Origin: Gammaproteobacteria bacterium
GTDB lineage: Bacteria; Pseudomonadota; Gammaproteobacteria; Eutrophobiales; Eutrophobiaceae
DNA: 64,000 bases
Reading direction: 5' to 3'
NCBI GenBank assembly: GCA_965116495.1
Contig: OZ220696.1
Location: 2,272,001-2,336,000 of the forward strand
In this document: in pieces, positions 44,087-61,048 of the stretch
Layout of the letters: every line of letters starts with the position of its first letter
Position numbering within the stretch: the first letter of the stretch is position 1
Position numbers and translations under genes: made by a program
The notes under the pieces: generated by a model
Told to the model about the DNA's origin: nothing
What the model saw: the letters and a program-made list of their open reading frames with translations, nothing else
The model's database searches: none

Positions 44087-45247
44087 TCATCGCCCGGCAG
44101 CGTCCCGCAACTGCTCCACCTTGTCCGTTTTCTCCCAGGTGAAGTCCGCTTCCTCGCGGCCGAAATGGCCGTAGGCCGCGGTCTGCCTGTAGATGGGCCG
44201 CAACAGGTCCAGGTCCCGGATGATGGCCTTGGGGCGTAAATCAAACGTGTCCTGCACCAGGGCTTCGAGCCGGGTTTCCGGGATGACGCCGGTGCCAAAG
44301 GTGTTGACCATCAGGCTGACCGGCCTGGCGACGCCGATGGCGTAGGCGATCTGGATCTCGCACCTGTCGGCCAGGCCGGCGGCGACGATGTGCTTGGCGA
44401 CGTAACGCGCTGCGTACGCGGCGGAACGGTCCACCTTGGACGGGTCCTTGCCGGAAAATGCGCCGCCGCCGTGGTGGGCGATGCCGCCGTAGGTATCCAC
44501 GATGATCTTCCTGCCGGTGAGACCGGTATCGCCTACCGGACCGCCGATGACAAAGCGTCCGGTGGGATTGACCAGGTAGCGTGTTTTGGCGGAGAGCATA
44601 TCCGCGGGCAGGACCGGTTTGATGATTTCCTCGATAACCCCTTCGGTCACATTGTCATGGCTGACACCGGCATCGTGCTGGGTGGACAGGACGACCGTAT
44701 CGACTGCGACGGGCTTGCCGTCCTCGTATAACACGCTGACCTGGGATTTCGCATCGGGCCGCAACCAGGGCAGCCTGCCGGCTTTTCTCACCTCGGCCTG
44801 TTTCTTCACCAGCCGGTGCGAGTAGGTAATGGGGAACGGCATCAGCACGTCGGTCTCGTTGCAGGCATAGCCGAACATGAGGCCCTGGTCACCGGCGCCC
44901 TGATCCAGGTCAAGCCCCTCTCCCTCGTTCACGCCCCGGGCGATATCCGGCGACTGCTTGTCAATCGACAGCAGTACCGAACAGCCATCGGCGTCAAACC
45001 CCATCTCCGATGAGTCATAACCTATTTCCCTGACGGTCTGTCTGGCTATCTCCGGATAGTCGATGTTCGCCTGCGAGGTAATCTCGCCGGACAGCAACAC
45101 CATGCCTGTCGTGACCAGAGTCTCGCAGGCTACCCGCGCATGGATATCCTGTTCCAGCAATGCATCCAGAATCGAATCGGACACCTGGTCGGCGACCTTG
45201 TCCGGGTGACCTTCGGAGACGGATTCCGAGGTAAACAGGTAATTCAT
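44087..45247 (-). CDS. metK: S-adenosylmethionine synthetase
   Basis: [44 protein letters not shown]. Confidence 0.99.
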
Positions 45248-45575
45248 ACGCGGGGCTCCATAAAGATTGAATGGGCATTCTAACCAGTTCCCGGGGAGTT
45301 TTACAGAGTAACCATGTGCTTTTTTTAAGTGAGATCCAGGATAACCGCATACTATTAAAGGAAGCGTGAGGACTCTCTGAACAGTATCCAGGCCCGTCTG
45401 CTGAACCCGGAGGGGGCTGTTCCTAACACAGGGCTAACACAGGGCTGGGGGAACACTGGGGGACACTGGGGGAGTTGACTTTAATACCTTAATCTGGGAT
45501 AATACTGGCCGTTAAACACTTAGTTAAAGTAGTTTAATCCGCTTATAAAATTTTCAACTCGTGAGGAGGATAGAT

Positions 45576-45827
45576 ATGAAAAGTGGCGACGACATGCTAA
45601 GACAACTCGTTGATAAATCCGCTGCTGACGCGGCGTTCAGGCAACAACTTCTCTCTGATCCCAAGACTGCCATAACCGCTGAGTTGGGCATTACCATGCC
45701 CGAATCGATGAATGTTGTGGTACATGAAAGCGACATGCAAACTGTTCACGTTGCTTTGCCGCCGGATCCGAATATCACCGAGGAACAACTCGAAGCCGTT
45801 TCGGCCGGCCTTTGCTGCTGCTGGTAA
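45576..45827 (+). CDS. srpE: NHLP/proteusin RiPP precursor, core LCCCW
   Basis: AGGAGG RBS; NHLP leader (D.AFRQQLLSDPK, VHE, LPP, EEQLEAVSAG); 5-residue core LCCCW-stop. Confidence 0.92.
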   Translation: MKSGDDMLRQLVDKSAADAAFRQQLLSDPKTAITAELGITMPESMNVVVHESDMQTVHVALPPDPNITEEQLEAVSAGLCCCW

Positions 45828-45897
45828 GTCCACCCCGATAAACAGTCGGTCTGGATTCGGAATATCCGAATCCGAATAGCTTACCGGGACTTCACAT

Positions 45898-45931
45898 GCC
45901 CTCGTCCCTTTCAGGGGCGGGGGTTTTGTTT
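45898..45931 (+). terminator. Probable intrinsic terminator after the precursor gene
   Basis: GCCCTCGTCCCT-TTC-AGGGGCGGGGG followed by TTTTGTTT. Confidence 0.6.
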
Positions 45932-46162
45932 GCCTGCCATAGAACCGATATAGGATCGCCCTGAGTCGGTCGTACCCACAGCGTCCCATGAATTTCCGCT
46001 GAAGGCAGTTCGAAGAGCGATAATTCCTTTCGGGAGACGTTCCCGAAACACATTAGAGGTATTACGGTCAGCGGATAGCTACCGTTGGCGCCGTGACGGT
46101 TGGAATGTTAAGCATTATTACGCCTTGCATCGGCAGAACGGGATCCCCGCAGGTAACGGAAT

Positions 46163-47281
46163 TTACTGGTAAACCGCCCCGGAAAGCACCATAAATACAT
46201 AGGCCTTGGCTTTTCGAAGCTGATTGTCTGATATGACCAGCTTCACATGGTGAATGCCCCGCAGCATAATATAACGCCCGGACTTCGCAAAAAGCGGTGT
46301 CGGTTTTGAGACCCAGCCGGCTAGCGCCTTGATCTTGTCGGAAAACACAATATCCTCATGGTCCAGGGCTTCCAGGAAGGGTGCCCAATCGGTCAAACCG
46401 TCAAGCCAATAGCGCGAATCCTTGGTATATCTCTGCTTTACAATGAGTGTGAGACCAAGCGTCGGACCAATTCCATCCTCCTGCACGTCAATATTCAATC
46501 CAATCCTGACAATGTTCACGCGGTCTGTGAAGCGTGAAATCACTGAATCGACGGCTGTGATCTGACCGGGCCAACCCGTATCTTCCAGGTATCGGGCTAC
46601 CTCCTGCTTCGATTTGAAGCCCATGACAGCGAGGCGAATTGCCCGAGAGCGGGACGGAAATACTCCAAACGAGTCCATGCGCGTATCTTCCGGCTGCGCA
46701 AGGTAAGCTTGTTGGAGGTACTTCCGTTCTGCGTCGTTAATCTCCCAGCCTACGCAGGAAGCGAGTGCGTCACTCACCATAACGACGTCATCTTCCTGAC
46801 CGTTGGCGCCGGTAATCGGGCGTTCGCCGGGCCGCAAGAACATTCCGGGGAAAGAACCTTGTCCCTCCCGCGCAGATCCTATGTCATATTCCAGCATAAG
46901 TTTCTGACCGACAATTTCACGCAGGGGTGAGTTTTCGGTTTCCATTTGCTCGCAGGCCCGCACAATTGCGCCGGCGGTCTCATCTGTGTTATCGGTCCGT
47001 GCGCACTCCCGGAAAAACTCTGCCGACCTGGTTCCACCGGCCAGGGAAGCGCCGAAATCCGCCTCCGGTTTGGGCGAATGCAACGGCAGTTCGAAGCCGA
47101 ATGGCAAAGCGGCCATTGTAATCGGAAGTTTTCCGGCGCAGTCGAGTATGCATTCCCATTCAGATGCCCCGATAAGAACCGGCGAAATCCTGTCCCGAAA
47201 GTGCCCAAGCAAATCACCCATGGTGCCGCCTTCCTCGGCGAGACGTTCCTGGGTAAGAATCACAGCTTCGTCAATATTCAT
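46163..47281 (-). CDS. RiPP-cluster protein of unknown function, possibly ABBA prenyltransferase-like
   Basis: 372 aa, 4-bp overlap with the upstream gene; FGFELPL, LMLEYD, HHVKLV, AKAY motifs. Fold call is tentative. Confidence 0.6.
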   Translation of the reverse strand: MNIDEAVILTQERLAEEGGTMGDLLGHFRDRISPVLIGASEWECILDCAGKLPITMAALPFGFELPLHSPKPEADFGASLAGGTRSAEFFRECARTDNTDETAGAIVRACEQMETENSPLREIVGQKLMLEYDIGSAREGQGSFPGMFLRPGERPITGANGQEDDVVMVSDALASCVGWEINDAERKYLQQAYLAQPEDTRMDSFGVFPSRSRAIRLAVMGFKSKQEVARYLEDTGWPGQITAVDSVISRFTDRVNIVRIGLNIDVQEDGIGPTLGLTLIVKQRYTKDSRYWLDGLTDWAPFLEALDHEDIVFSDKIKALAGWVSKPTPLFAKSGRYIMLRGIHHVKLVISDNQLRKAKAYVFMVLSGAVYQ

Positions 47282-48588
47282 ATGGTCTTCTCCAGCAGGA
47301 ATTCAACCAGACGCTCCAGGGCTTCGATGCAAAATGCGGAAGTCACCGATTCGGAACCATGCCCAATCTGCCCTACCAGACCCCACTTCAACTCCTGATC
47401 GCCAAACGCGAGAAACTCCGGCCAACTGCCGTCCTCACGTTGCGAGTTCAGGAACCTTTTCACCTGGTGTTCTGCGTCGATGCTTTGCAGGCTTCCAATA
47501 TTGTAGAGAGCAGACACTGCCTGGGCAGTCTGGAGGATATTGCCGAATTCCCCCTTCCCGTCGCGCAGGCCGAGGATACCATCCGCAAGCGCCGGGCGTA
47601 ACCGGTCAAGAGCGGACGGCACGCGCAGCAGGGCGCGGGTGATTGCATAGTAGATTGAGATCGAATCAGGATACCACTTGGACGTTCCATCCAGGCTGTC
47701 TTCAATGATCAAACCTTCCAGCCATTGCCGGGCTTCCCTGGTTTCCGGACGCTCACCGAGATAGGCAATGACATTCGCATTAACCACAGGATCGGCTTCG
47801 ATACGAAAAGTAGATACTACATCAGGTTCATCATCCGCGAGTATCCAGGTCTGGAAAAGACCTTTTTCGTCGCGATTTGCCAGAATTCCCGGGACATTCC
47901 TTTCCAGCAATATCCAGGGGTGATTCCCGATGACAAGTGAGCAGACTGTGGAACTATCGAGGTCCTGCGGCAGATGTCGGTAGTAGCGCCATAATCCGGG
48001 ATATTCCATGGTATCGACAAGATACGCCCTGGTGGTGGCACAAATGGCTTTAGCCTTCGGTTCATCACAGCCTTCCAGGGCAAGTACACAGAATGCCGAA
48101 ATAAACGGGGGTCTTTCGAAATGCCTTGGGATGTTCGGGTCGGCTATATTGAAACGGATGCAGTGCCAGGCCCCGTTTTCATCGATCCCGGATTCCAGGA
48201 AATCGAGACCGCGACGGATGCTTTCCCTGCATGCATCGGCAAGCGTCCCGGGCGTGGCGTTGGATAACAAGGCGCCTGCGCCACCCGGTTCGGGAGGGCG
48301 GACAGGCGGCGCCGGATCATAAAGTGTCTTGCGCAGGAACTCGAGTGATTGTGAGCCGGTTCTCGCCTCCTGCCGTTCAGCCGCGCTGAATTTGCTGCGC
48401 GGCGGAAGCGCCAGATGCGCAACGGAAACGGTATCTTCGTGCACGCGAATCTCATGATCTTCGTCCAAGGTCACACCAAGTTCCTCTTCGATGGTTTCTT
48501 TGGGTTTCTCAAGCAAACGATTGCGAAGATCATCGTCTTCGACGGCTCTTGATATGAGGTAATTAATTGTGTGAACAGGATACTTCAC
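47278..48588 (-). CDS. NHLP-leader-like domain fused to a class II terpene cyclase/prenyltransferase-like helical domain
   Basis: N-terminus RAVEDDDLRNRLLEKPK..IEEELG..VHED..HLALPP; then GLWRYY..LPQDLDSST, DPVVNANV and a QW motif QREDGSW. Confidence 0.75.
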   Translation of the reverse strand: MKYPVHTINYLISRAVEDDDLRNRLLEKPKETIEEELGVTLDEDHEIRVHEDTVSVAHLALPPRSKFSAAERQEARTGSQSLEFLRKTLYDPAPPVRPPEPGGAGALLSNATPGTLADACRESIRRGLDFLESGIDENGAWHCIRFNIADPNIPRHFERPPFISAFCVLALEGCDEPKAKAICATTRAYLVDTMEYPGLWRYYRHLPQDLDSSTVCSLVIGNHPWILLERNVPGILANRDEKGLFQTWILADDEPDVVSTFRIEADPVVNANVIAYLGERPETREARQWLEGLIIEDSLDGTSKWYPDSISIYYAITRALLRVPSALDRLRPALADGILGLRDGKGEFGNILQTAQAVSALYNIGSLQSIDAEHQVKRFLNSQREDGSWPEFLAFGDQELKWGLVGQIGHGSESVTSAFCIEALERLVEFLLEKTI

Positions 48589-48595
48589 TTCCGCT

Positions 48596-51544
48596 TCAGG
48601 CGACCTGCCTCTTTACCAGTTCTTTGAATACTCCTTCCTCCTCCATGAGTTCGTTGAAGGATCCGCTCTGCACAACTTTTCCGGCCTGCATCACAAAGAT
48701 TCGATCAGCCTGTTGCAATGAGGACAGGCGGTGGGCGATAACGATCCGGGTCGAGGTGAGGAGCGCCAGGTTCTGCATGACCTCGGCCTGGTTTTCGTTA
48801 TCGAGCCAGTTGGTTGCCTCGTCAAGCAGCATGACCCGCGGGCTGGCGAGCAGTGAACGGGCGATGGTGACGCGCTGGCTCTCGCCACCCGAAAGGACGG
48901 CGCCGCTGGACCCGACCATGGTCATCATGCCCATGGGCATCGCCTTGATTTCCTTTTCTATTCCGGCGGCACGGGCCGTCTGCCACACTTCCTCTGTTGT
49001 CGTCGGCTCGTGGTGCGCGACGATATTGTCCCAAACATCCTGGGGATGGAGACGCACTGACTGCGGCACCGAGCCAACTTTCCGGCGCACTTGCTTCAGG
49101 TTCAGGTGCCTCAGGTCACGCCCGTCATAATAAACCGCGCCGGCAGTTGGCGAATCGATGCCGAGGGCAAGCCGGAACAAGGTACTCTTGCCGGCGCCGG
49201 ACTCGCCGGCGATCGCGATAAATTCGCCGGGTCGCGCGCGAATAGTGACATCGTCGAGGATCAACGGGCCGTCGGGATCGTAGCGAAAGGAAATACGGTC
49301 GAACAGGACTTCGCCGCCCAGACGTTCAACCGGCTCACCTTCAACGGCTGCTTCAGGAACTGTGGCGAGCAGCGGGCGCATCTGGTCGAACGCCGGCAGC
49401 ATGGCGGCAATAGCGCCGAAGGACTCGCCAAGGCGGGCGATTGCGGACTGGAAAGCGATGAAGACAACGTAAACGACGAGAAAATCGCCGACAGGAACGT
49501 TGCGGTCACCCACCGCGGCCACTGCGAAAAGCAATGCCCCGCCGGCGAGAAAGGGGAGCGCGGCAGCGAATGCCCGCGAGTGCCCCTCAAGTGCGCCCAG
49601 TTCGATTTCTGCGCGTTTCTGTTCGCGATAATCCCGGGCCCAGATGGCGAATGCCGACCCTTCCGCATTTTCCACACGCAGCTTGGCGATGCCTCCCACG
49701 ATCTGGAACAGCCGGCCGGATACACGACGTACAGCGCTGATCATCCGCCCGTACGGTGCAACCTGGCGCAACCCAATGGCGACGGTGACCAGCAGGGAAA
49801 CCAGGCTGAAGCCAAGGGCGATGACCCCGAGGGTGGCATCGTAGAAGAAGATGACGCCAAAAACCGGCAACAGGAAAATGATCGACAGCAGGCTGTCGGC
49901 GATGACTCCCTGCAAGCCGTCGCGAAGATTCTGGAATGTCATCCCCGACATGGCCAGGTCGCCGGCCGGATAGCGGTGCAGAATGCTTGACGGTAGGCGC
50001 ATGAGGCGGTCCCAGAAGGCAGCTTCGACCCTTGATGCCGAACGCCCCTCGAGCCGCATCAGCGCCGATCCCTGCAGCAGGTGCAGCAGTGCGCCGAGCA
50101 GGCCGAACGCCGCCAACGTCACGGCCACGGCATACAGCGCGCCGGCGCTTCCCCCCCCGCCCCCGATATGATTCGCAACGAAACCAAGCGCAACTGCCGG
50201 CAGCAGTTTGACCAGGCCGCCCGGAAGCCCGGCCAGCACCAGCCGCAGTAGGTCCGCGGCCGTTCCTTGCATGGCGATCCCCAGCAGGTCTGCCGGTTTT
50301 ACGGGTGCCGACGGCAATGGCCGGTAGAACACCCAGGCTTCGTCCTTCAGCGCCTCAGCACGAGCCGCCGTAACCCGAACGCTGCGCTTGGTGACCGGAT
50401 CAACTTCCCGGTAGCGTCCGAACATTCCCGGTATCAGTGCGACCGGCTGGTCGTCCCCGGCGCGGAATGCCAGTAGTGCGTTGCTGTCACTGCGCCACCA
50501 GTTGCCCGCGGCCTCGAAGCGCACGCGCCGGGCGCGTACCCCTGACGAATCAAGCACGTCTACGAGGCGGATCGGTGAATCCGAAGGTCGGGAGCGCGCT
50601 GGAATCCTGAAATCGATGCCTTCATGACGGCCGACGATTTGCAAGGCATCCGCCAGCACCGTGTCCTCGACGCTGGCCTCCCGGTCGATCGGCAGGTCAT
50701 AGATATTGAAAAGCCGCTGCCGGGCAGCTTGTTCGGCCGTGCGGCGGCTGGTTGTCCGCTCGCGCTCGAGATTCGCATCATCGACCACGGCCAGTCGGCG
50801 ATTAAGGCGTTCCAGGTTAAAGGCAAGCGCGTGAAAGGAGGCGAGCGCCGGCAGCAGCATGCCTTGCTGGGCCAGTGTTTCGGTTGATTTGCCGGAAACT
50901 GTCGCCTCGTCGAACAAGGTGAGCCAGTTCGTCCGCGTCAGTGGTATCAACGCTTCGCGCGAGCCGCCTGTCTCGGCAAGTTGCGCCGGGTCGACCATAT
51001 CCATGAACAGGCTTGCTCCGAGGGACGGTTCGGACACCCATACCACGCCGCGTCGCACGGACAGCGTACAAGGGCCCAGTGACTGCGTCAGACCGGGTTC
51101 GGCCAGCGCAGTCGGTCGCGGCAGGTGGCTGACGAAACGCGAAAGTGTGTCAGTCATGTCGGTGAGCCAGGTATCGGCCTGTTGCGCCAGTTCTGCCGGA
51201 TGAACCTCGGACAGCAGGGATGCCGGCAGCCGTTTCAGAAGGGTGCCCGGCAACCCCTTGGCGATCAGGCTGAGCGTGGTGACTTTGCCATTGTCGTCCT
51301 GTTCGTCCGCTACGACACCCGGCAACAACCTGCCCGATTCGCAACGCAGCAGGTGCTGCGGCGCCGCCTGCTCTACCCCGTCCCTGAATTCGACCAGGAA
51401 CAGATCGACGGCACCCTGGTCAATGAACCAGACATTGTCCGCATCGTCGAGCGTTACCGGCAGGTTGCCGGCGCAAGGCACGGATGTGCCGGAGTGGGCG
51501 GCAAGCCGGCTTATTGATGCGTGTTCCGGCATGGCGTCCTGCAT
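48596..51544 (-). CDS. NHLP bacteriocin export ABC transporter, permease/ATPase subunit
   Basis: Long N-terminal region, TMD (AAFWDRLMRLP), GESGAGKST, LSGGE, LDEAT. Confidence 0.92.
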   Translation of the reverse strand: MQDAMPEHASISRLAAHSGTSVPCAGNLPVTLDDADNVWFIDQGAVDLFLVEFRDGVEQAAPQHLLRCESGRLLPGVVADEQDDNGKVTTLSLIAKGLPGTLLKRLPASLLSEVHPAELAQQADTWLTDMTDTLSRFVSHLPRPTALAEPGLTQSLGPCTLSVRRGVVWVSEPSLGASLFMDMVDPAQLAETGGSREALIPLTRTNWLTLFDEATVSGKSTETLAQQGMLLPALASFHALAFNLERLNRRLAVVDDANLERERTTSRRTAEQAARQRLFNIYDLPIDREASVEDTVLADALQIVGRHEGIDFRIPARSRPSDSPIRLVDVLDSSGVRARRVRFEAAGNWWRSDSNALLAFRAGDDQPVALIPGMFGRYREVDPVTKRSVRVTAARAEALKDEAWVFYRPLPSAPVKPADLLGIAMQGTAADLLRLVLAGLPGGLVKLLPAVALGFVANHIGGGGGSAGALYAVAVTLAAFGLLGALLHLLQGSALMRLEGRSASRVEAAFWDRLMRLPSSILHRYPAGDLAMSGMTFQNLRDGLQGVIADSLLSIIFLLPVFGVIFFYDATLGVIALGFSLVSLLVTVAIGLRQVAPYGRMISAVRRVSGRLFQIVGGIAKLRVENAEGSAFAIWARDYREQKRAEIELGALEGHSRAFAAALPFLAGGALLFAVAAVGDRNVPVGDFLVVYVVFIAFQSAIARLGESFGAIAAMLPAFDQMRPLLATVPEAAVEGEPVERLGGEVLFDRISFRYDPDGPLILDDVTIRARPGEFIAIAGESGAGKSTLFRLALGIDSPTAGAVYYDGRDLRHLNLKQVRRKVGSVPQSVRLHPQDVWDNIVAHHEPTTTEEVWQTARAAGIEKEIKAMPMGMMTMVGSSGAVLSGGESQRVTIARSLLASPRVMLLDEATNWLDNENQAEVMQNLALLTSTRIVIAHRLSSLQQADRIFVMQAGKVVQSGSFNELMEEEGVFKELVKRQVA

Positions 51545-53754
51545 CAGCCTGATTTGACCAGTTTGTAATACATGCCGGCCTGGTCCGCAATCAACTCGTC
51601 GTGGGTGCCGCGCTGCACTTCGGCGCCCTTGTCGAGTACTATGATCTCATCACAATCCCGCACCGTGCTCAGCCGGTGCGCCACGATCAGGCAGGTGACA
51701 CCGCGACGCCGTAAGGCATCATCCACATATTCCTCCGTGGCGGCATCGAGTGCGCTGGTCGCCTCGTCCAGAATGAGCACTGTCGGATTGCCCACCAGCC
51801 CGCGGGCGATTTCCAGCCGTTGTCGCTGGCCGCCGCTGAAATTCGCCCCGCCTTCCTCGACGAGGGTCGCGTATCCATGCGGCCTGATCAGGATTTCCTC
51901 ATGGATGCAGGCATCCCGTGTTGCGGCAATGATGACTTCATCCGGAACGGCCGGGTTCCACAAGGTGATATTGTCTCGCACGGACGCGGAAAACAGCACG
52001 GCCTCCTGGTCCACCATGGAAATGGACCGCCGCAGTACTTCCTCGGGGATCTCATCCCGCGGATGGCCATCTAGCAGTATTTCACCAGACCATGGCTGAC
52101 TGATTCCCGAAACGAGACGCGCCAGGGTCGACTTGCCGGAACCGCTTGGACCGACCACGGCAACCCGCTGCCCCGGTTTGATCACGAGGTTGAAGTCCTT
52201 GATCAAGGGCGGTCGGCTCTTGTTGTAACCGAAGGTGACGTTGCGCAATTCGAGACTGCCCGCAAGCTGTAGCCGGCCGTTGAACGTGGGGATTGCCTGC
52301 GCTTCCGGACTGCGGCGGCTGAACACGGGGTCTTCAGCGGTCCTGGAGATGTCATCCAGCCGTTGCAAATCGGTTTCGAGCGCCTGGCGTTTGTCGGCGA
52401 ACTCCAGAAACCGCCCAACCGGCGCCAGAAACATCTCTGCCAGTATGTAGAACCCGACCAGCGCCCCCAGGGTCATTGCTCCGGTCATGACCAGGCTCCC
52501 CCCAAACCCCAGGATTGCCGCGGCGCGAAATGCCGCGATCAGGCCGGGAAGCGCGCTATTGACGGCGCCCAGTTCGGAGTAGCGTTGGCGCGCATGAAGT
52601 TCGCTTGCCTGCTGGCCGCTCCAGCGCGAAAAAAAACGATCGTCCGACCCTGTCATGCGCAGGTTATCCGCATGACTCAACATCTGCATACCAACGCCGA
52701 TCAGCAATCCCTGCTCGCGCCTCATTGCCTGGCTTCGAACTTCCCTGAGCGCGCTCAGGAAGCGGGCCAGCACTCCGTGCAGGAGAGCCAGCAACAGCAC
52801 GATCAGCGTTAGCAGGACATCGTAGGCCAACATCGCGACAAGCAACACTGCGCTCATGGCCATGTCTACAATGAGCACAAGAAACTGCTCCGTCAGGTTT
52901 TTCGCGATGCGATCGATGGACGAGACCCGGTCGGTGAGGTCGCCGGCCAGCCTGTGTTCAAAAAACTCCACCGGCAGCCGCAGCAGCCGCGACAGGCCCC
53001 GGTTGTAGCCGATCACCGAAACCCGGACCGCGAGCCGCTTGAGGAAACGGTGCTTGAGCAAGGTCAGGACGTATACCAGGATGCCGCCGCCAATCAAGGC
53101 GGCCACCAATCCGCCCCAGGGTCCGTGGTTTTCCAGAACGTCGTCTACGAAAACACCGAGAGTTGCGGGAACGACAAGCGCCAGCAACGTCAACATGAGG
53201 CCACAGGCAATCACCCCGGTAAGCACGCCCCACGATTCGGCGAGCAAGGCGCCCAGTTGCCTGACTAGGTTTGGCCGGTCACCGCCGGGCTTGAAATCGG
53301 GACCGCACTTGAAGCGAAGCATAATCCCGCTGTAGCCCTTGGTAAACTCTTCTGCGCTAACCCTGCGTTTCCCTGTGGCAGGGTCATTCAGGTAGAAACT
53401 TTGGCCATCGAACCCTTCGAGCACAACGAAATGGCTGAATTGCCAGAATAAAATCAGCGGAAGCTCCACCCGTTTCAGCTGATCGGCGCGCAGGCTGAGC
53501 CCTTTGCATTCAAGACCATAGTACCTGGCGGCGCGCAGGATGCTTGCCGCACTGCTGCCGTCACGGCTCACTTCACATTTATCGCGTAATTCAGTCAACG
53601 GCGCCCAGCGCCCGAAATAAGCCAGGACGATCCCGAGACAGGCGGCGCCACATTCCGACGCATGCATCTGCAACAGAACCGGTGTGTTGACCTTCTTTTT
53701 CAAAACGTCCGAAGACGCCTTATCCCTGGCTCCCTTGGGGGCGCTCGATGGCAT
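51544..53754 (-). CDS. NHLP bacteriocin export ABC transporter with C39 peptidase
   Basis: QMHASECGAACL, HFVV, NDPA, GPSGSGKST, FSGGQRQR, LDEATS. Confidence 0.95.
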   Translation of the reverse strand: MPSSAPKGARDKASSDVLKKKVNTPVLLQMHASECGAACLGIVLAYFGRWAPLTELRDKCEVSRDGSSAASILRAARYYGLECKGLSLRADQLKRVELPLILFWQFSHFVVLEGFDGQSFYLNDPATGKRRVSAEEFTKGYSGIMLRFKCGPDFKPGGDRPNLVRQLGALLAESWGVLTGVIACGLMLTLLALVVPATLGVFVDDVLENHGPWGGLVAALIGGGILVYVLTLLKHRFLKRLAVRVSVIGYNRGLSRLLRLPVEFFEHRLAGDLTDRVSSIDRIAKNLTEQFLVLIVDMAMSAVLLVAMLAYDVLLTLIVLLLALLHGVLARFLSALREVRSQAMRREQGLLIGVGMQMLSHADNLRMTGSDDRFFSRWSGQQASELHARQRYSELGAVNSALPGLIAAFRAAAILGFGGSLVMTGAMTLGALVGFYILAEMFLAPVGRFLEFADKRQALETDLQRLDDISRTAEDPVFSRRSPEAQAIPTFNGRLQLAGSLELRNVTFGYNKSRPPLIKDFNLVIKPGQRVAVVGPSGSGKSTLARLVSGISQPWSGEILLDGHPRDEIPEEVLRRSISMVDQEAVLFSASVRDNITLWNPAVPDEVIIAATRDACIHEEILIRPHGYATLVEEGGANFSGGQRQRLEIARGLVGNPTVLILDEATSALDAATEEYVDDALRRRGVTCLIVAHRLSTVRDCDEIIVLDKGAEVQRGTHDELIADQAGMYYKLVKSG

Positions 53755-53755
53755 C

Positions 53756-54307
53756 TTATAGTCGCGTCGTAAGGAACAGTTCTATCGGAGATTGCCTGCC
53801 AAGCCCGATAACCAGCCGGCATTCCCTGCTGGTGAGGGAGTCCGGCTCAAGACCTTCTTCGAGAACGATATCGACACGGTGCAGGGACTCAGGCGCCTCG
53901 GGCAGAAACGCCGACATCCCGCCGGAAATGGGTATAGCGGAAATTGCCTTGACTGCACCGTCCAGTGTGCCTGCTTTTGCATCTTTCGTGTCCAACTCAA
54001 CCATTACCGGCATCCCGGCCTCGATTGACGGCGCGGTGCTGCTCTGCATCCAGACAAGGGCCTGCACAAGCCGGCTTCCTTCAGGTGAGGTTTCACCTTG
54101 TTCAATAAGTATGCCGTTGAACTCAATACTACGGGCTATGTTGCCGAAGAGAAGCCATGCTGAGAGTATTAACAGGAAAACGGCAATTGCCGCGACAAGC
54201 AGGCGTTCATGCGGTGTGGAAATCGTCAGCAGCCGGTCGAGTTGCTCGCGTTCTTCCTTCGCCTCAGCTACCGTATCGTGAAATGATTCAAACGGATTGT
54301 TGAACAT
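53756..54307 (-). CDS. Short NHLP secretion (HlyD-like) accessory protein
   Basis: REQLDRLLTISTP, TM helix, C-terminal SPIELF; only 183 aa. Confidence 0.75.
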   Translation of the reverse strand: MFNNPFESFHDTVAEAKEEREQLDRLLTISTPHERLLVAAIAVFLLILSAWLLFGNIARSIEFNGILIEQGETSPEGSRLVQALVWMQSSTAPSIEAGMPVMVELDTKDAKAGTLDGAVKAISAIPISGGMSAFLPEAPESLHRVDIVLEEGLEPDSLTSRECRLVIGLGRQSPIELFLTTRL

Positions 54308-54432
54308 GGCCGGGAATATCCCCCCAAATGTGTGTAATCCAGTAAGACCAGGAAAATCTTATTCGGCTAACTCGATGATTTGCTTGATGTTAAAATAAAT
54401 CAGCTTTTTTAACAAGCAGTAATTCCGGGGAT

Positions 54433-54574
54433 GGATGATGTGTGCCTTCCTGGCACACACCCTATGGGCGTCCTTCGGACGTCCAAATCGGCTCCTGGCG
54501 GATTTGTGGGGTCAGAGTAAAATATTGAAGCGCATTGCCGGTGGCTGGATCGGTGGTGATATTACTCTGACCCC
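54433..54574. repeat. Composite intergenic palindromic repeat, including copy 2 of the GGGGTCAGAGTAA pair
   Basis: Hairpins TGTGTGCC..GGCACACA, GGGCGTCC..GGACGTCC and CAAATC..GATTTG, then the inverted repeat at 54508-54574. GATTTGTGGGGTCAGAGTAAAA is shared with 12073-12094. Confidence 0.7.
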
Positions 54575-54591
54575 TGCTTTGCAGATGTTTC

Positions 54592-56865
54592 TCACGCAAT
54601 TACAGGGACGGGATTCAGTTCAGCCTCCCCGGTGGGGCAATCCCGCCAGCCCATCTCAACCGGTACGTCATATAGGCGTCCCGGTGCGAAGCGTTCCCAG
54701 AAGTGACGCAGGCCCGGCACGATCACGCGCGCCACGGGCATACCGATGTCAGGCCGGGTCTGGTCGAGCACCAACAATTCCATCCCCCTCACTTCGACCA
54801 ACCCACGGCACCATTCCACATCGTCTCTCAGGTCTTCCGTATCCGGAACCGAATAATCGGAACTCTGGCTCAACCTGGCATCGCCTGCAGGCGCGAGATG
54901 GGGGTGGTCGGCCAGTTTGCCGTTCTTCCACCACCACAGACACATCGGATCATCGACCCCGTACCCGCTTTGAGCATTGCCCGGGCGAGGGACCCAGGTG
55001 AGGCACTGGTTCAATTCACACACGGCCCGCAGCGCCGCAATCCGGGGGTCGGCGTGTGCGCCTGCGCCATAGATGATGTCTTCGGCCACGCCATCGTTGC
55101 TGCGGGACAGTGCAACAAAGGCAGGAATTCCAAGGTCGCCGGTAAGGTCCAGCAGCCACATTTCGCGATTGTATTGATGATAATAACCTGGGGCAGATGC
55201 CAGGTACTCGTCAGCAAAGCTATCCAGGTCCACTCCGGGCCTTTGCAGCCGGTTGTACCACCAGATTGCGACGGCATCGCGTTCGACCAGTTCAAAAAAC
55301 CCCTGCAGAACAGCTTCTTCCAGGGTGTTCCCGGCTGCACAGCCGTTGGAGTCGGACCAAAGCCCCGAGGTTCCCCGCTGCTCCGGAGTCATTCCGTAGA
55401 GGATGGCTGTCGGTAACCAGCATTGCCGGTCCCGGGTGAGCGACCATACCGGAGACCAGTCCAGTTCATGCTCCGGGTCGAAGCGCGCCGGAACGACATT
55501 ATACGGGTGGCCGCGTGCGTTGATCTCTTGCGCATGGTCCAGTTGCCGGTCGCTGAACAACTGGACGTCGTTCGGGTGGATCGCCTCTCCATCCGCCGCT
55601 CCGGAAAAATCCGCCAGGCGCCTGCGGCAACGGATTTCATCACCGTGGAAAGCGCCGGAATAGCGCTCGACCGCTTCGCACAGCGCACTGACCTCGGATT
55701 GCTCCGCGCTGCTGCCCTTACCTGCACTCTTGCTGCGCAGGCTGCGCCGCAATGAGCTCAGGTTCTTGATTCTCAAGGCAAGATTGCTGCCCGCCCAATG
55801 TACATGCAGCCAGGAGTCTGTTCCGGGAGTTGTGCGTGAAACCCAACTGACCACTCCACTCACCGGACTGACCAGGTGCCGGTACTTTTCAAGCGTCTCC
55901 GCAGGTGTAGCCGCCCGCACTCCGCCGCTGTTGCGAAACTGTTTCGGGCTCGCCTGCAATCGCACCGGCGTCGCCGGCCGATCAGTTTTATAGAGTTCCT
56001 CGTTTCCGCAGACCGGGCATTGCGGACGGCGCATGACCCGGTGATGTTCACTTTTCATGCCGACAACATCCAGTGTGATCGCATGGTCATGCAACGGCGC
56101 CGCATCCCCAAGGACAAACCACCTGGCGATCTCAATGGCAACAGTTCCGCTGACGACATCCAATGCCAGGGGTTCGGCTACGTTCGGACGAAACGCGGCC
56201 GCCTCGCCACAGTGATTTCGCACAAAGGAATGGACCTCCTGGTGGTTTCGAATACGGTAGGAAAGGCAGGCCCAACACGGACTTTTCTGCGCAGGCCGGA
56301 ACACAGGGCCAAACAGCGGTCGTAATCCTGCAGGCCGGACCAGCACCCATGGGATGCCCGATTCCAGGTGCTCCCGGTTGACGGCGGCAAACTCATCATC
56401 AAGATAGTCGGAACCTGCGTAAATGGACAGGGACGGGCGGTTTGTACCGACTGTAATACCCATGCCCTCAAGCCGTGTCGCGAGACGGCCGTCGTCACCC
56501 TGGATTACTACCTGCGCTTCCTGCAATCGCTCTTCAACCTGGCGCGGGGATGCACCCTGCGAGGACCAGAATGCCGCCCTGCCCCGTTCCATGTCATAAT
56601 CGCCGGATACGGTGTATCCCCTGGATTCCAGGAAAGTCAGGGCTTTGCGGACATCCGTCTCCGGATGCACCCCGTCTAGCGCATCAACAATACTTTCCCG
56701 GGAACGGCAACCGTCAAGCAACGGCAGGAGATCCCCATATACCTGCCCATGCAGGAGCGTGTTGAATGTTTCGGAAACCAGGAGCACCTGCCCGGCGCCG
56801 ATAGAGCGGTGCTCAAGGTGCGGCGCAAGCACCGGCCGTTCAATCTGGTGCGGATTAACAGCCAA
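54592..56865 (-). CDS. srpC: Fused E1-like/YcaO cyclodehydratase (azoline-forming)
   Basis: RRE-like N-terminus, PCWACL...CPVCG, SAGKG, EAVERY, SNGCAAGNTLEEA, ELVERDA, GRLY, C-terminal PVP. Confidence 0.95.
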   Translation of the reverse strand: MAVNPHQIERPVLAPHLEHRSIGAGQVLLVSETFNTLLHGQVYGDLLPLLDGCRSRESIVDALDGVHPETDVRKALTFLESRGYTVSGDYDMERGRAAFWSSQGASPRQVEERLQEAQVVIQGDDGRLATRLEGMGITVGTNRPSLSIYAGSDYLDDEFAAVNREHLESGIPWVLVRPAGLRPLFGPVFRPAQKSPCWACLSYRIRNHQEVHSFVRNHCGEAAAFRPNVAEPLALDVVSGTVAIEIARWFVLGDAAPLHDHAITLDVVGMKSEHHRVMRRPQCPVCGNEELYKTDRPATPVRLQASPKQFRNSGGVRAATPAETLEKYRHLVSPVSGVVSWVSRTTPGTDSWLHVHWAGSNLALRIKNLSSLRRSLRSKSAGKGSSAEQSEVSALCEAVERYSGAFHGDEIRCRRRLADFSGAADGEAIHPNDVQLFSDRQLDHAQEINARGHPYNVVPARFDPEHELDWSPVWSLTRDRQCWLPTAILYGMTPEQRGTSGLWSDSNGCAAGNTLEEAVLQGFFELVERDAVAIWWYNRLQRPGVDLDSFADEYLASAPGYYHQYNREMWLLDLTGDLGIPAFVALSRSNDGVAEDIIYGAGAHADPRIAALRAVCELNQCLTWVPRPGNAQSGYGVDDPMCLWWWKNGKLADHPHLAPAGDARLSQSSDYSVPDTEDLRDDVEWCRGLVEVRGMELLVLDQTRPDIGMPVARVIVPGLRHFWERFAPGRLYDVPVEMGWRDCPTGEAELNPVPVIA

Positions 56866-57151
56866 GACCCTGTGACATCTGTGTATAACTGGTTAGAGGA
56901 ACCCCGCACATCCGGTCCTGGTCCGACTTGTCTTCGGCCGGCAAACTTGTCAGATGTTGCAAATGGGGAACCAGGCTCGGCCAGCTGCCTTCGCCCACCC
57001 CTATGGTCGGGATGTGGGAGTCGTATATGTGGTGCAGCTCATGATCCGGGTCAGGGTGAAGGCGAGTCACGGCAGCGGCCGCCAAAGACCCTGCGGTTCC
57101 CCGGCCAATCACTGCGATGTTCTTTAACGACTTGCTGCCAGGATTTATCAA
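56855..57151 (-). pseudogene. srpI: Internally deleted flavin-dependent (Trp-type) halogenase
   Basis: IAVIGRGTAG and IPTIGVGEG N-terminal motifs; only 98 codons with no catalytic middle; stop overlaps the YcaO start. Confidence 0.82.
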
Positions 57152-57367
57152 ATCAGGTGATTCTCACAAGTGTCCGTTGAAAGTTCTGCACACACCAACA
57201 ACTTGTGTAATTTTATCATGGTTTTCGGACCATTGTGTTCGGACCACTTTAACGGAATGCCAATCAAGATCAAATGGGCATCAGGCGGCGCAGACCAATC
57301 GTATCCTCGTGACGCAGTCGGGCAAAGCAGTCCGGGAAAGAGCATAAAGGGACCCGGTTGAAACTGA

Positions 57368-58312
57368 ATGAGCAATTCAGCCGACAAGTGGTTATACTAT
57401 GGTGACCATCAGGACACCCCAACCTTGAACACCACTCGCGAAATACCTCTTTCCGAGCATGAACGCTCGGTAATTGAACACTACGACAAAATGACCAGGG
57501 TGTTCTATCTCCAGTGGAGTTCCGAGCATTTTCATTTCGGTGTATTCAAGCCCGGGGAACGCCCCAGGCACAACGAGACTCCGAAAGAATCGGACGGACA
57601 TGCAAGAGCACTGGAGCGCATGGTGGAAGTCATAGTTGCCCCAGCCGGGATTGAGGGACACCATCATGTGGTGGACGCCGGGTGCGGAGTGGGCGGAACT
57701 GCCTTTCACCTGGGCAGGACGCGGGACTGCAAGGTCACGGGCGTGAACCTGAGCAAGACGCAACTGGAGATTGCCAGAAGTAAGGCAGTTAATGCCGGCC
57801 TGGGTGATCGGATAGACTTTAAGTACGCGAACTGTTCCCGGAGTCTGCCGTTCGCAGATGGCTCCGTGGACGTGGTTGTCAATATCGAAAGCGCCCGTCA
57901 CTACAGTGACCGAAGAACATTTCTCCACGAGGTATACAGGATCCTGAAACCGGGAGGAAGCATTGTGGCTTCAGACTGGGTGGTGCATGACGTAATACCG
58001 GACAGCCAGCACAAACGTTACATTCAACCGTTATGCGAGGACTGGATGCTGTATAACCTGGAGTCCCAGTCCTCGTACACCCGGTTGCTGCAGGAAGCGG
58101 GTCTGGAAGTGATTGAATTTGAGGGATTCAACGGAATGGAGTTTGACAACCTGCATCTCCTCACAAACACCTACCAGTCCCTGGGACTGCTGCGAACCGG
58201 TTACATGAAGTCGCCTGTTTTCGCCAAACTGATGACTCAGCTGGAAAGATTGTGTGTTGCCTGGCGACACAGTTACCTGGGCATCAAACGCTACTGCGCC
58301 GTGAAAGGTTAG
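57368..58312 (+). CDS. Class I SAM-dependent methyltransferase (tocopherol/sterol-MT-like)
   Basis: HYD...HFHFG, VVDAGCGVGG, LPFADGSVD, RILKPGG. Confidence 0.9.
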   Translation: MSNSADKWLYYGDHQDTPTLNTTREIPLSEHERSVIEHYDKMTRVFYLQWSSEHFHFGVFKPGERPRHNETPKESDGHARALERMVEVIVAPAGIEGHHHVVDAGCGVGGTAFHLGRTRDCKVTGVNLSKTQLEIARSKAVNAGLGDRIDFKYANCSRSLPFADGSVDVVVNIESARHYSDRRTFLHEVYRILKPGGSIVASDWVVHDVIPDSQHKRYIQPLCEDWMLYNLESQSSYTRLLQEAGLEVIEFEGFNGMEFDNLHLLTNTYQSLGLLRTGYMKSPVFAKLMTQLERLCVAWRHSYLGIKRYCAVKG

Positions 58313-58339
58313 GGATCAGGGGCTGGCCCGGATTTCTTA

Positions 58340-60757
58340 TCAGGCATTGAAGAGTGCGTCGATGTCGGTAGCGGCGCGTGTTGCCGTTACTTTAATCGCG
58401 GCGCTCAGTGCATCGAAGTCGTCTGTTCCGCAGCTTCTGGCAATGACTGTCCTGGCCATCGGCCAGGTGGCATTATCCACGTTGTTATCTTCTCCCAGCA
58501 AGCGCAGGATGCCGCGCAGGTTGCGCCACATTCTTGCCGCCTCAGCCAACCGTTGCGCGCAATCGTCAGGTATCACCTCACCCTCGCCGGCGCTCTGGAA
58601 TACGGAAACCGTACCTGCGGCAATAACCTCCGGCGCCGTTGCAGCATGGGTCACAGTCAGATATGCGGCAGCGCGTTCTACCTCCCGGAGACCGCCGCGC
58701 ATATTCTCGAATGATTGCAGTCCGGCCTCCGGCGTGCCCTCCCCTGCCTGACGCAATTCATTCAGCAACGCATCACGAGCGGCGCCATTGGCCAGGATTT
58801 CAAGGCGCGTATCCTCAAACCGTTTTCCCAGCCCGGCATCCCCTGATGTAAAAACACAGCGCGACCGTAAGAGTTCCAGCAACTCTCCTGTTGAGGAGTT
58901 GCTGTAATGGTGTTCCGAAAAGTCAGCGAGAGAACGGACAATTGTCTCAGCCCTGCCCGGCAACATCGGCTGCAACAGCAGGTTGTCCCGTGACAGGGCG
59001 CGCAACGCGTCGAGAGAGCGCTCGCTCAATGTCCTGTAATAATCGGGTGAGCCACTGCCGTCATAAAGGAACATGATGCCAAGCCCGGCGCCCAGCGTCG
59101 CTTCTCCACTTGCAATCTCTCCCAGAACCACTGCCGCCACACCGCCTTCGAGCCGCCGCTGGGTAAAATCCTCCACCGCAGCCGAGAGAACACCGGCGAT
59201 CGAGGCCTCAGCAATGTTGGACAGCGCCGTCCCCGCTTCAACCGGTGACAGGTTGCCGCGCAATGTGTGCATGGCAACCTGCAGGACCTTGTCGTTCGAC
59301 CAGTTGCGCATGATCTCTACCGCATCTTTCGTGTCCTGCACCGGGATATCTGCAACCTGCTCCTTCATTTCTTCAGCAGTGAATTCCAACGTCCAGTACA
59401 CGCGCGTCAGACCGCGTCGAGCAATTAATTCAAACTCGGGACTCGGCCCGAATCCGTCCGGCAGGTCAAGATCGGTGAATTCCCTGTCCTGAAGGATGTC
59501 GAGCAACGCCGGGGTACGGTTTATCCATTCGGAAAGCCGTGGCGATGCTGCCATGATCGCGGAAATTGTATCGAACATATCCGGACGCGCGTCGAATGCA
59601 GGGCTGTCGTAAACGTTCCAGTCCTTGACCTCCGGATAATAACGCTGCCTCCACTTGTCGACCAACGGGTCCATCGTCTCGAACCAGCGGCGGGGGGACA
59701 TCGCCAGGCCGCCCATTTTGCCGTAGGGCCCGGGCAGTTGCGGCGATTGATCCTCACCCCAGTGCTGTAACAGCGGATAAGGCCGGCTTGCAGCGGCATG
59801 GTGGTCGGCATGGCGCTGCGCGTTGTAATAGATCCAGTTGAAAAACCTGTAGTCGCTGCTCCAGGAATGTTGCGGCTGGGGTCGCTCGAAGCGGCCGTTG
59901 GGAAGGCGGATACGCCGTAATCCGTAATGCTGGACATAGTTGATGATCTTCATTGACAGGACCGAACTGGCGCTGAACATCAGGAATGCCAGGATTCCCC
60001 AGATACCGCCGAACCAGTATCCGAGGGCATACCAGAACGTAACCATGAGGAAATAACGCCAGAACGGATTGGTGTAATGCCAGACCGGGAGGTGGCGGCG
60101 CGCCAGCCTGTCGCGCTCGAAACGCCAGGCTACGACGAGACTGTTCGCCACGTCCCGGGGGAAATATTCCCAAAAGCTCTGCCCCTTGCGCGCCGAGCCG
60201 AGATCTGCAGGCGTGGCGACCAGGGGGTGATGTATATAGACATGCTCCGTGGCGTAGTGCGGGTAGGTGACCGAAGCCAGCAGGAACTCGCCGAACCTGC
60301 GCTCCCATTCATAGCGCTTATGTACCAGCTCATGACCGATAATGAACACCATCTGGGACGCCATGCCGAGAGCAAATATCATCAGCACGGCCTCCCACAC
60401 GGCCAGGTGGCCGCCAATAAAAATCTGCCAGAGTACGAATACGAGGACCACCGGCCACAGTACGGCCCACATCCATACAGCCAGGTTGTATACGTACAAC
60501 TGGCTGTCACGGGTACCCCACGGATCCATGTTGCGTTCTTCCAGGCCTAAATGGAGATCGAGCCTGTTCTCAAGCCAGACAAACAGGAACGGCCCCATGA
60601 TCCACCAGCCCCCGTAAAGCGCTGCACAAATCACCAACGGGAAAATCAACAGGAGCAGGTAATGCGGGAGCGCATTCAGGACCGACGGCTGGACAAACTC
60701 CTGCCCGCCGACGGTTTCGGCGCTCGTGCCACCAGGGTCCGCGCTATACTCTGCCAT
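58340..60757 (-). CDS. AlkB-like membrane di-iron oxygenase fused to a degenerate GlnE adenylyltransferase domain
   Basis: His boxes HELVH, EHVYIHH..VATP.D, NYVQHYGL, QRHADHH. C-terminal half has GlnE-like ALSNIAEA, VVLG..GE....G.G..FLYD and RGGLREVE. Confidence 0.85.
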   Translation of the reverse strand: MAEYSADPGGTSAETVGGQEFVQPSVLNALPHYLLLLIFPLVICAALYGGWWIMGPFLFVWLENRLDLHLGLEERNMDPWGTRDSQLYVYNLAVWMWAVLWPVVLVFVLWQIFIGGHLAVWEAVLMIFALGMASQMVFIIGHELVHKRYEWERRFGEFLLASVTYPHYATEHVYIHHPLVATPADLGSARKGQSFWEYFPRDVANSLVVAWRFERDRLARRHLPVWHYTNPFWRYFLMVTFWYALGYWFGGIWGILAFLMFSASSVLSMKIINYVQHYGLRRIRLPNGRFERPQPQHSWSSDYRFFNWIYYNAQRHADHHAAASRPYPLLQHWGEDQSPQLPGPYGKMGGLAMSPRRWFETMDPLVDKWRQRYYPEVKDWNVYDSPAFDARPDMFDTISAIMAASPRLSEWINRTPALLDILQDREFTDLDLPDGFGPSPEFELIARRGLTRVYWTLEFTAEEMKEQVADIPVQDTKDAVEIMRNWSNDKVLQVAMHTLRGNLSPVEAGTALSNIAEASIAGVLSAAVEDFTQRRLEGGVAAVVLGEIASGEATLGAGLGIMFLYDGSGSPDYYRTLSERSLDALRALSRDNLLLQPMLPGRAETIVRSLADFSEHHYSNSSTGELLELLRSRCVFTSGDAGLGKRFEDTRLEILANGAARDALLNELRQAGEGTPEAGLQSFENMRGGLREVERAAAYLTVTHAATAPEVIAAGTVSVFQSAGEGEVIPDDCAQRLAEAARMWRNLRGILRLLGEDNNVDNATWPMARTVIARSCGTDDFDALSAAIKVTATRAATDIDALFNA

Positions 60758-60865
60758 GGCAACCTCCCGCTCTTATCAGCGTCCAAGTCTCATTCACGGT
60801 TTCATTGTCCATAACGTTGTAACTATGTCAAGCGAACTCACCAGGACAGGAAGTAATCGTCTCTT

Positions 60866-61039
60866 CGTCATTCCGGGCTTGTCCTGGAATCCTGTGGAAT
60901 ACTGCGTCGCCCACGGGGCGACCCGTTGTATTGACTGGATTCCCGCGTACGCGGGAATGACGAAAGAGACGCGGGAATGACGAAAGAGACGCGGGAATGA
61001 CGAAAGGGACGCGGAAGTGACAAATGGGGAGCGGGAATG
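60866..61039. repeat. GTCATTCC..GGAATCC REP-like doublet with tandem 20-bp amplification of the right arm
   Basis: CGTCATTCCGGGCTTGTCCTGGAATCC ... TGGATTCCCGCGTACGCGGGAATGACG, then GCGGGAATGACGAAAGAGAC units at 60951, 60971, 60991, 61011 and 61031 (partial). Confidence 0.85.
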
Positions 61040-61048
61040 TTGTGTGGT

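Follow-up and report, generated by a model that had tools for sequence, protein, structure and literature searches.

The srp clusters, a widespread RiPP cluster class, are reported to be highly transcribed in sponge symbionts, and an ITEEQL consensus is reported for their precursors (10.1101/2023.06.09.544420). In SrpE the corresponding motif, NLTEEQL, is described at residues 66-72 (PMC10858898), and three thiazolines are reported to form on the core in the SrpC/SrpE system (PMC10286304); the sections of the literature surveyed here characterise only the thiazoline and bromination steps. Hybrids of RiPPs and terpenoids are already published, and NctPC is described as combining an ABBA prenyltransferase with an MstE-like cyclase to modify Trp (PMC13290415). 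With this precedent, the idea of a RiPP-terpenoid hybrid is not new.

We analysed a window of 64,000 nucleotides, meaning the whole stretch of DNA under study, using its open reading frame list and profile searches. Every gene listed by the first-pass annotation lies where it had been placed (Table 1), while the extent it gave was too short: the AlkB-GlnE fusion had been overlooked, and the cluster ends at 60757 and not at 58312. The island between metK and the RND gene covers about 45248-61048; at locus L107 of genome G004, metK directly adjoins the RND gene. Precursor residues 66-72 read NITEEQL, the same register as in SrpE. A second precursor was rejected, the other TIGR03793 match in the genome being a true nitrile hydratase alpha subunit. 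The adaptor is matched over at least 60% of its length in 42 of 80 loci, typically at residues 1-178 of 183. The linked LolA-like/MMPL/DUF1302 trio of many relatives is absent at the locus, with only distant unlinked homologues found (27-56% identity). The sigma-70-like promoter match is weak because six promoter-type sites were found where 6.5 are expected by chance; terminator-type hairpins number 16 against 15.3 expected. Two RNA runs contain only 0.07-0.10 of the words, too few for use.

Table 1. Features of the cluster, with positions in the window
Feature	Position	Strand	Length	Basis or detail
Sigma-70-like promoter match 5' of precursor	45475..45503	+		Consensus match only
NHLP (proteusin) precursor, SrpE-type	45576..45827	+	83 aa	Core LCCCW after SAG; TIGR03793 65.9 bits, E 2e-18
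Terminator-like hairpin 3' of precursor	45898..45924	+		12 pairs
Predicted ABBA-barrel prenyltransferase	46163..47281	-	372 aa	Structure model and Foldseek
Predicted NHLP-leader-fused class II (beta-domain) terpene cyclase	47278..48588	-	436 aa	Drimenol synthase E 2e-8; Foldseek
NHLP ABC exporter 2	48596..51544	-		TIGR03797 671 bits
NHLP ABC exporter 1 with C39 leader peptidase	51544..53754	-		TIGR03796 854 bits; PF03412
Short HlyD-type adaptor	53756..54307	-	183 aa	TIGR03794 partial
E1-like/YcaO cyclodehydratase, SrpC-type	54592..56865	-		PF02624 (E 2e-93), TIGR03604, TIGR03882
SrpI-type flavin halogenase relic	56855..57151	-		Codons 1-71 joined to about 400-424; Lys84 lost
Class I SAM methyltransferase (RebM/MitM/TleD-like group)	57425..58312	+		Longest ORF from 57368
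AlkB-type di-iron membrane hydroxylase fused to degenerate GlnE adenylyltransferase domain	58340..60757	-

Judged from its sequence, the halogenase relic is an internal in-frame deletion of a 424-aa gene and not a truncation; 978 bp are gone, including the codon for the catalytic Lys84, which intact sister halogenases carry at this position as SrpI does. The brominase loss first read from the window is confirmed by this deletion and by the lack of any other full halogenase copy in the 99.5%-complete genome (G000), whose two other PF04820 matches are unrelated flavoproteins and do not provide a brominase in trans. An assembly artefact is ruled out, as contigs of runs X2 and X3 from one study and X5 from another read across the junction with no mismatch; relative to the intact halogenase gene of G014, the X3 contig leaves out 984 bases, with 6 letters in between. 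The brominase is broken in three of eight same-layout sister clusters and full-length in 46 of 50 outside genomes, a contrast (3/8 vs 4/50; Fisher p 0.048) from which we claim no enrichment because kin are not independent. The three relic genomes (G000, G015 and G019) have three different breakpoint sets, and a single clade for them is rejected (p-AU 0.002 for YcaO, 0.02 for the methyltransferase), so that tree tests rule out one shared loss for G019. Since G000 and G015 are sisters on flanking genes, the minimum is two losses; a third is suggested by the different retained pieces and by contigs of run X8, about 98% identical to the window, which run on through the deleted part. Given the X8 contigs, the loss looks recent, and the dN/dS values against sisters (0.2-0.4 for the adaptor, 0.2-0.5 for the methyltransferase, 0.1-0.3 for the other genes) therefore mostly reflect selection before it. 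In all three relic genomes every other compared gene is full-length and without stops, the lone stop in the comparison lying upstream of the likely methyltransferase start.

The 372-aa protein is predicted to adopt an ABBA prenyltransferase fold. Pfam and PDB sequence searches with its family gave no match, while the top Foldseek matches of its structure model (pLDDT 95) are all ABBA prenyltransferases, namely EpzP, PagF, LimF, 6-DMATS and PriB. Scores are modest (E about 1e-5, TM 0.4-0.5, 8-17% identity), the indole prenyltransferases reaching the higher query TM-scores (0.48-0.53), and Atlas leads point to Trp_DMAT/PTase_Orf2 (0.87-0.89); these fold scores fix neither acceptor nor chain length. 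The neighbouring ORF is separate, overlapping by 4 bases, and in relatives YcaO or AlkB genes often sit between the two. Its product is predicted to have a class II cyclase fold with the catalytic residues kept: Foldseek matches are AsDMS, MstE and SHC, and D209/D211/Y306, which align to the AsDMS catalytic D331/D333/Y427, are the same in all 60 aligned homologues. It bears an N-terminal NHLP leader domain (TIGR03793 E 8e-10) and no HAD phosphatase domain.

A relative is encoded on 401 stretches of genome contigs, and the locus falls in the same lineage as the srp clusters found across many symbiont phyla. Among 55 full-flank loci centred on the prenyltransferase, the cyclase is found in 54, YcaO in 49, the precursor in 44, AlkB in 36, a LolA-like gene in 27 and MMPL in 20. 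The two downstream ORFs left unassigned in the first-pass annotation are thus co-conserved (cyclase 54/55, YcaO 49/55), and from gene content the prenyltransferase and cyclase belong to the core gene set of the widespread LCCCW (srp) lineage. Of its claim of terpene-type enzymes, the terpene arm stands with the two predicted folds, while novelty specific to this locus does not, both genes being standard in the lineage. LolA-like and MMPL are lipid-export genes, and their presence in the loci fits a lipophilic product. In trees built with FastTree except for AlkB, and unsure on long branches, the prenyltransferase, YcaO and ABC2 fall with those of pan-sponge LCCCW clusters, while the methyltransferase and AlkB are placed with those of Trp-less sister clusters that occupy the same metK-RND site; because of this split, the cluster is a mosaic. 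Its proposed srp ancestry is borne out by the core, the SrpE-register motif, YcaO and these trees. Prenyltransferases of LCCCW clusters make up a clade of their own (SH-like 100), separate from the enzymes of Trp-less clusters. Since members of the prenyltransferase family sit with the Trp-less cores LCCC, LCCCI, MCTCI and LCCCGL, and the G008 cyclase lies beside a core LCCC, Trp need not be the prenyl acceptor.

The probable start of the methyltransferase is the TTG at 57425 (Table 1), since in three sister genomes the longer frame is interrupted by stops within its first 14 codons. The RebM/MitM/TleD group matches its family profile at E 2e-29 to 1e-33; the best structural matches are the O- and N-methyltransferases RebM and MitM, with TleD fifth after RebM, two MitM entries and a glucose O-methyltransferase. 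On gene content, the methyltransferase belongs to the metK-RND island, being present in 8/8 same-layout sister clusters and in G021. Across the 23 genomes of the genus, 15 have the prenyltransferase family, 15 a methyltransferase orthologue and 14 both, which contradicts an unrelated neighbour and upholds the suggestion that the gene is tied to the cluster. Both the prenyltransferase and a full methyltransferase are missing from seven of the 23, which shows that loss of the island happens. The gene was seen in none of 80 loci with 10-kb flanks because in close relatives it lies beyond the flank; at the Trp-less locus L189 a relative immediately follows the prenyltransferase. Outside, its family was found in only two of 50 LCCCW genomes, in each case as part of a second cluster whose core differs (LCCCGI, WCCCGT), and a metagenome scan with its alignment gave distant generic relatives only. 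The AlkB part of the adjacent fusion matches the alkane 1-monooxygenase 8f6t (E 3e-55) and keeps the His boxes HELVH, EHVYIHH, QHYG and QRHADHH; the GlnE-like part matches 3k7d (E 1e-6), with a variable motif.

These results raise the possibility, which we regard as about evenly balanced, that the product of this mosaic, brominase-deleted srp variant is a bromine-free tris-thiazoline LCCCW with a cyclised, likely oxidised and methylated terpene. YcaO would convert the three Cys to thiazolines, the reaction reported for SrpC/SrpE. The rings are expected to stay thiazolines and not to become thiazoles because the SagB-type dehydrogenase profile TIGR03605 has no match in G000 (control positive in 9 of 14 genomes); the azoline dehydrogenase noted as missing from the window is thus missing from the genome, consistent with the thiazolines first proposed for the putative product. 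The ABBA enzyme may then attach a prenyl unit of C15 or C20, with the Trp indole as its most likely acceptor, after which the cyclase would protonate the terminal alkene via D211 and cyclise the chain; alternatively, the free diphosphate could be cyclised ahead of transfer. AlkB would hydroxylate the lipid, the methyltransferase would act on the terpene or a peptide terminus, and the C39 ABC transporter would cleave after SAG and export the product. From the mass shifts listed in the first-pass annotation, +272 (C20) and +16 (O) are missing, while cyclisation by itself leaves the mass unchanged, or adds 18 Da where water quenches it. The calculated mass of the tris-thiazoline core is 572.170 Da, rising to 708.295, 776.358 or 844.420 Da with a C10, C15 or C20 unit.

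Brominase deletion may instead be the first step of cluster loss, or bromination may be required for later steps, with little or no mature product made. The recent deletion next to about 98% identical contigs that keep the deleted part, the seven genomes lacking the island genes and the full-length brominase of most outside genomes, which suggests its usual importance, would fit early decay of this kind. We nevertheless consider it unlikely: it is always this gene that is hit, at differing breakpoints, one and the same junction recurs in two studies, the other compared genes of the three relic genomes are intact, and Trp-less sister clusters have no halogenase at all. Quite unlikely, in our estimate, is terminal capping as in linear cyanobactins, in which the ABBA enzyme would prenylate a terminus or thiazoline and the methyltransferase would give a C-terminal methyl ester or N-methyl group. 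Relatives of both enzymes do occur together in Trp-less clusters, adjacent in L189, the cyanobactin enzymes PagF and LimF figure in its best fold matches, and aeruginosamide B is C-terminally O-methylated (PMC11285071); however, the LCCCW prenyltransferases form a separate clade, indole prenyltransferases score higher, and the NctPC precedent is described as Trp-directed.

It is improbable that the methyltransferase is a leftover of a displaced Trp-less cluster, inactive on an LCCCW product otherwise as preferred above. Its rarity in outside LCCCW genomes, where it lies in second clusters, and a dN/dS against the closest sisters of 0.31-0.50, the highest among the enzymes, point that way, but the gene is kept in all same-layout sister clusters and G021, and against more distant sisters dN/dS is about 0.2. 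Most improbable is that the terpene enzymes work apart from the peptide, the cyclase turning free FPP into a drimane-type product and the prenyltransferase acting on a small molecule: AsDMS, to which the cyclase is closest in both sequence and fold, does use free FPP, yet the cyclase here has the NHLP leader domain and no HAD phosphatase, and most loci hold it together with the prenyltransferase, the precursor and YcaO.

If the bromine-free terpene-peptide is made, bromine isotope-pattern searches of sponge extracts would miss some srp products. The genus offers a natural experiment, with near-identical clusters with and without the brominase and Trp-less sisters with and without the cyclase, for testing the need of bromination for the terpene steps, the prenyl position and the role of the methyltransferase. 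A bolder version, which we hold to be doubtful, is that of a working natural hybrid, in which the pan-sponge LCCCW terpene arm joined to the TleD-like methyltransferase of the Trp-less sister family would give a C-methylated, cyclised and hydroxylated terpene on a tris-thiazoline-Trp peptide, bromine being repeatedly dropped as methylation or the terpene takes over its role or site. If true, the product would be a RiPP bearing a methylated polycyclic isoprenoid, and srp would represent a single branch within a modular family of terpene-peptides that spans the symbionts.

Compared with known systems, NctPC and ChrPC are likewise RiPP maturases that combine an ABBA-fold prenyltransferase with an MstE-like class II cyclase, but there the two are fused, while here they are separate genes, the cyclase has its own NHLP leader domain and the core is a predicted thiazoline pentapeptide. 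The cyclase shares the beta-domain class II fold and the D331/D333/Y427 equivalents with the AsDMS TC-beta domain and MstE, at about 20% identity and with an N-terminal leader domain in place of a HAD domain. In linear cyanobactins, too, genes for a prenyltransferase and a methyltransferase accompany a short thiazol(in)e peptide; aeruginosamide has the bifunctional AgeMTPT, whereas this locus has separate enzymes, an NHLP leader, C39 ABC export, a cyclase and AlkB. The methyltransferase falls in the same class I group as TleD (5GM1, the teleocidin methyltransferase-cyclase; PMC9715568), RebM and MitM, to which it is only distantly similar; the comparison does not separate O-, N- and C-methylation. 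With srp clusters the locus shares the NHLP precursor with core LCCCW and its LxxxxL motif at 66-72, a YcaO that is SrpC-type at family level and the NHLP transporters; it differs by lacking the linked LolA-like/MMPL/DUF1302 trio, by the extra methyltransferase and AlkB from the Trp-less sister type, and by the deleted brominase where SrpI retains an intact Lys84, because of which the cluster is best described as a derived srp variant rather than a full member.

The locus is real and was spotted correctly by the first-pass annotation, all of whose listed genes for an srp-type (sponge proteusin) cluster were found in the window; the span it gave was too small, the unit being bigger and running from metK to an RND gene. 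Across the genus (23 genomes, including G000, that of the window) the island lies between these two genes, which stand side by side in G004 (locus L107) and, by BLAST coordinates, also in G001, G007 and G009; we therefore count the methyltransferase and the AlkB-GlnE fusion into the island. The azoline dehydrogenase had been called absent, and the G000 genome yielded no SagB-type dehydrogenase. Past metK, positions 42272-43928 hold what we take to be a toxin-antitoxin pair (Phd/YefM-YoeB-like), together with an AAA_14/DUF4143 ATPase.

Features of the island and its metK border in the window
Feature	Position	Remarks
metK (SAM synthetase)	44087-45247	host gene at island border in the genus; flanks the empty site too
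NHLP precursor, 83 aa, SAG-LCCCW end	45576-45827	NITEEQL at residues 66-72
372-aa protein	46163-47281
436-aa protein	47278-48588	leader copy, residues 1-80, with C-terminal end FSAAERQEARTG-SQSLEF, a degenerate double-Gly-type site
Short dispersed repeat	~54370-54570	adaptor/YcaO gap; 18 more BLAST matches in the genome
Halogenase relic	56855-57151
AlkB-GlnE fusion, 805 aa	58340-60757	alkane monooxygenase E 3e-55; GlnE E 1e-6; metal-binding motif of the adenylyltransferase-like half degenerate, variable across 62 aligned matches

The 372-aa protein has no match in Pfam, NCBIfam or PDB sequence searches, while its model (pLDDT 95, from a 98-sequence alignment) matches, among the folds listed, ABBA prenyltransferases only (EpzP, PagF, LimF, 6-DMATS and PriB; E about 1e-5, TM 0.37-0.53). 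In the 436-aa protein, a class II cyclase beta domain comes after an NHLP leader; the protein resembles drimenol synthase in sequence comparison (E 2e-8), and its model (pLDDT 73) has AsDMS, MstE and squalene-hopene cyclases as fold relatives. Its D209, D211 and Y306 align with D331, D333 and Y427 of the drimenol synthase AsDMS, each required for cyclisation according to the available part of PMC12365925, and are unchanged in 60 of 60 close homologues; the motif DLDS is present in all 12 commonest variants listed, which make up 70 of the 77 matches in related loci.

Relatives of the prenyltransferase were found in 401 stretches of genome_contigs, and the best 80 were taken, with MAG titles spanning several phyla. 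In 55 loci the prenyltransferase is flanked by 10 kb on either side; counting matches of at least 60% coverage, the cyclase is present in 54 of them, YcaO in 49 and the precursor in 44, which shows co-conservation of the two accessory ORFs with precursor and YcaO; AlkB-GlnE follows with 36/55, a LolA-like gene with 27/55, MMPL with 20/55 and DUF1302 with 15/55. The LCCCW end occurs in 63 of 78 precursor matches, counted over every locus together with duplicates and the window. Prenyltransferase and cyclase are not peculiar to the window locus, and the terpene arm is common to the whole lineage. An unlinked MMPL/LolA-like/DUF1302 trio also lies at G000:C1:1227432-1233819, with 27-56% identity to the srp-linked trio and its LolA-like match in two pieces. 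At L007:11246-11519, in an otherwise complete LCCCW-type cluster, the precursor match is in two frames (frameshift or assembly error).

The brominase is lost, as had been proposed: the window holds only the relic, and no further halogenase copy was found in the G000 genome (99.5% complete, one contig). What remains of the 424-aa halogenase gene is codons 1-71 and about 400-424, and Lys84, the catalytic lysine of the Trp brominase SrpI in the available part of PMC10858898, is absent. Against the intact G014 gene, a contig of sequencing run X3 skips 984 bases, with 6 letters in between, and the junction is spanned mismatch-free by contigs of three runs from two studies, X2, X3 and X5. The halogenase is intact in five genus genomes (G002, G014, G016, G018 and G022; core readings for this group cover G014, G018 and G022) and a relic in G000, G015 and G019, with differing breakpoints (G015 keeps codons 1-36, 201-246 and 377-424; G019 keeps 1-26 and 373-424). 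Flanking genes rule out a single clade of the three relic genomes (p-AU 0.002 and 0.02), yet make G000 and G015 sisters; thus there were at least two separate deletion events. Overlapping contigs of run X8, about 98% identical to the window, cross the deleted part gap-free, judged on gaps alone, so the G000 deletion looks recent. Beyond the genus there are 74 more distant loci; in the genomes behind 50 of them, picked for long flanks, the brominase match is full-length in 46 (one of them, G066, with one TAG), split in one and absent in three. In the available part of 10.1101/2023.06.09.544420, where the completeness of the bins is unstated, halogenases adjoin 66 and YcaO 116 of 191 such clusters.

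The methyltransferase has no match in the best 80 of the 401 loci; in close relatives the gene sits past the flank. An orthologue (at least 47% identity) is present in 15/23 genus genomes, as is the prenyltransferase family, and the two occur together in 14/23, the exceptions being G021 (77% complete; partial methyltransferase at a contig end) and G007 (88%). Of 50 genomes outside the genus, the methyltransferase turned up in two, in both cases as part of a second cluster whose core is LCCCGI or WCCCGT. By structure it lies closest to RebM, MitM, a glucose O-methyltransferase and 5GM1 (TleD, in the available part of PMC9715568), followed by prenyl-diphosphate C-methyltransferases. In trees, the window prenyltransferase and ABC2 (SH-like 100) and YcaO (95) fall within the LCCCW clade; AlkB nests with clusters of G008 and G012 whose precursor core lacks Trp (100/99), and the methyltransferase among enzymes of such Trp-less clusters. 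The trees show mixed ancestry of the cluster genes; at the metK-RND site, an LCCCW arm may have displaced the left-hand portion of a Trp-less cluster already resident there. What is the window locus' own is the recent, recurrent brominase deletion and the mosaic right arm.

Sister clusters, Trp-less or otherwise cored, occur in L088-L098, L188, L189 and L190 (LCCC, LCCCI, LRCCI, MCTCI, LCTCV, RCCC, LCCCGL, LCCCGI, WCCCGT, LSSGCG and FGVALCC). Those of L088-L094 and L096-L098 occupy the metK-RND site, with 1-2 prenyltransferase paralogues, 1-3 methyltransferases, YcaO and mostly AlkB, without halogenase, and with a cyclase in G008 only. Two Trp-less clusters contain genes (L092:2888-4294 and L091:10185-11612) with an N-terminal FAD-binding motif, presumably amine-oxidase-like. 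Elsewhere, L086:764-2052 (G000:C1 about 2988500-2989800) encodes genuine nitrile hydratase alpha and beta genes, and L082 and L083 hold a near-identical flavoprotein pair (412-413 aa, spaced 27 kb) that we assume to be sulfide:quinone oxidoreductase-like.

In the pathway we consider most likely, at about even chances, YcaO would form three thiazolines on the core, a C15 or C20 prenyl group would be transferred, probably to Trp, and class II cyclisation would follow; oxidation by AlkB, then methylation, would precede C39 cleavage and export of a bromine-free product. Trp as acceptor is open to doubt, because family members occur with Trp-less cores and the G008 cyclase with core LCCC. Early decay of the cluster is an unlikely reading; dN/dS is 0.1-0.3 for precursor, prenyltransferase, cyclase, YcaO, ABCs and AlkB, an argument weakened by the recent deletion in G000. 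Terminal capping in the style of linear cyanobactins seems rather improbable, an idle methyltransferase quite improbable, and terpene chemistry separate from the peptide would surprise us most.

Among the papers listed, no title or abstract opening ascribes terpene enzymes, loss of the brominase or a methyltransferase to srp clusters; Nguyen 2021 and Hubrich 2024, or their supplements, may already annotate the genes. The supplementary files of PMC10858898, as available, contained no cluster map. The proteusin clusters in the available part of PMC11832590 hold several function-unknown genes, and further comparison literature, likewise available in part, comprises PMC9426513, PMC10286304, PMC12615548, 10.64898/2026.08.03.742642, PMC11285071, PMC12715784 and PMC12426817. 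The window precursor's NITEEQL has the same register as NLTEEQL in the srp precursor SrpE (PMC10858898, available part). Because the brominase test failed, we class the window cluster as an srp variant, a descendant of that lineage without an intact brominase. Its terpene enzymes are predicted to act similarly to NctPC, the RiPP maturase combining an ABBA prenyltransferase and an MstE-like cyclase (PMC13290415, available part), although in the window the two are unfused.
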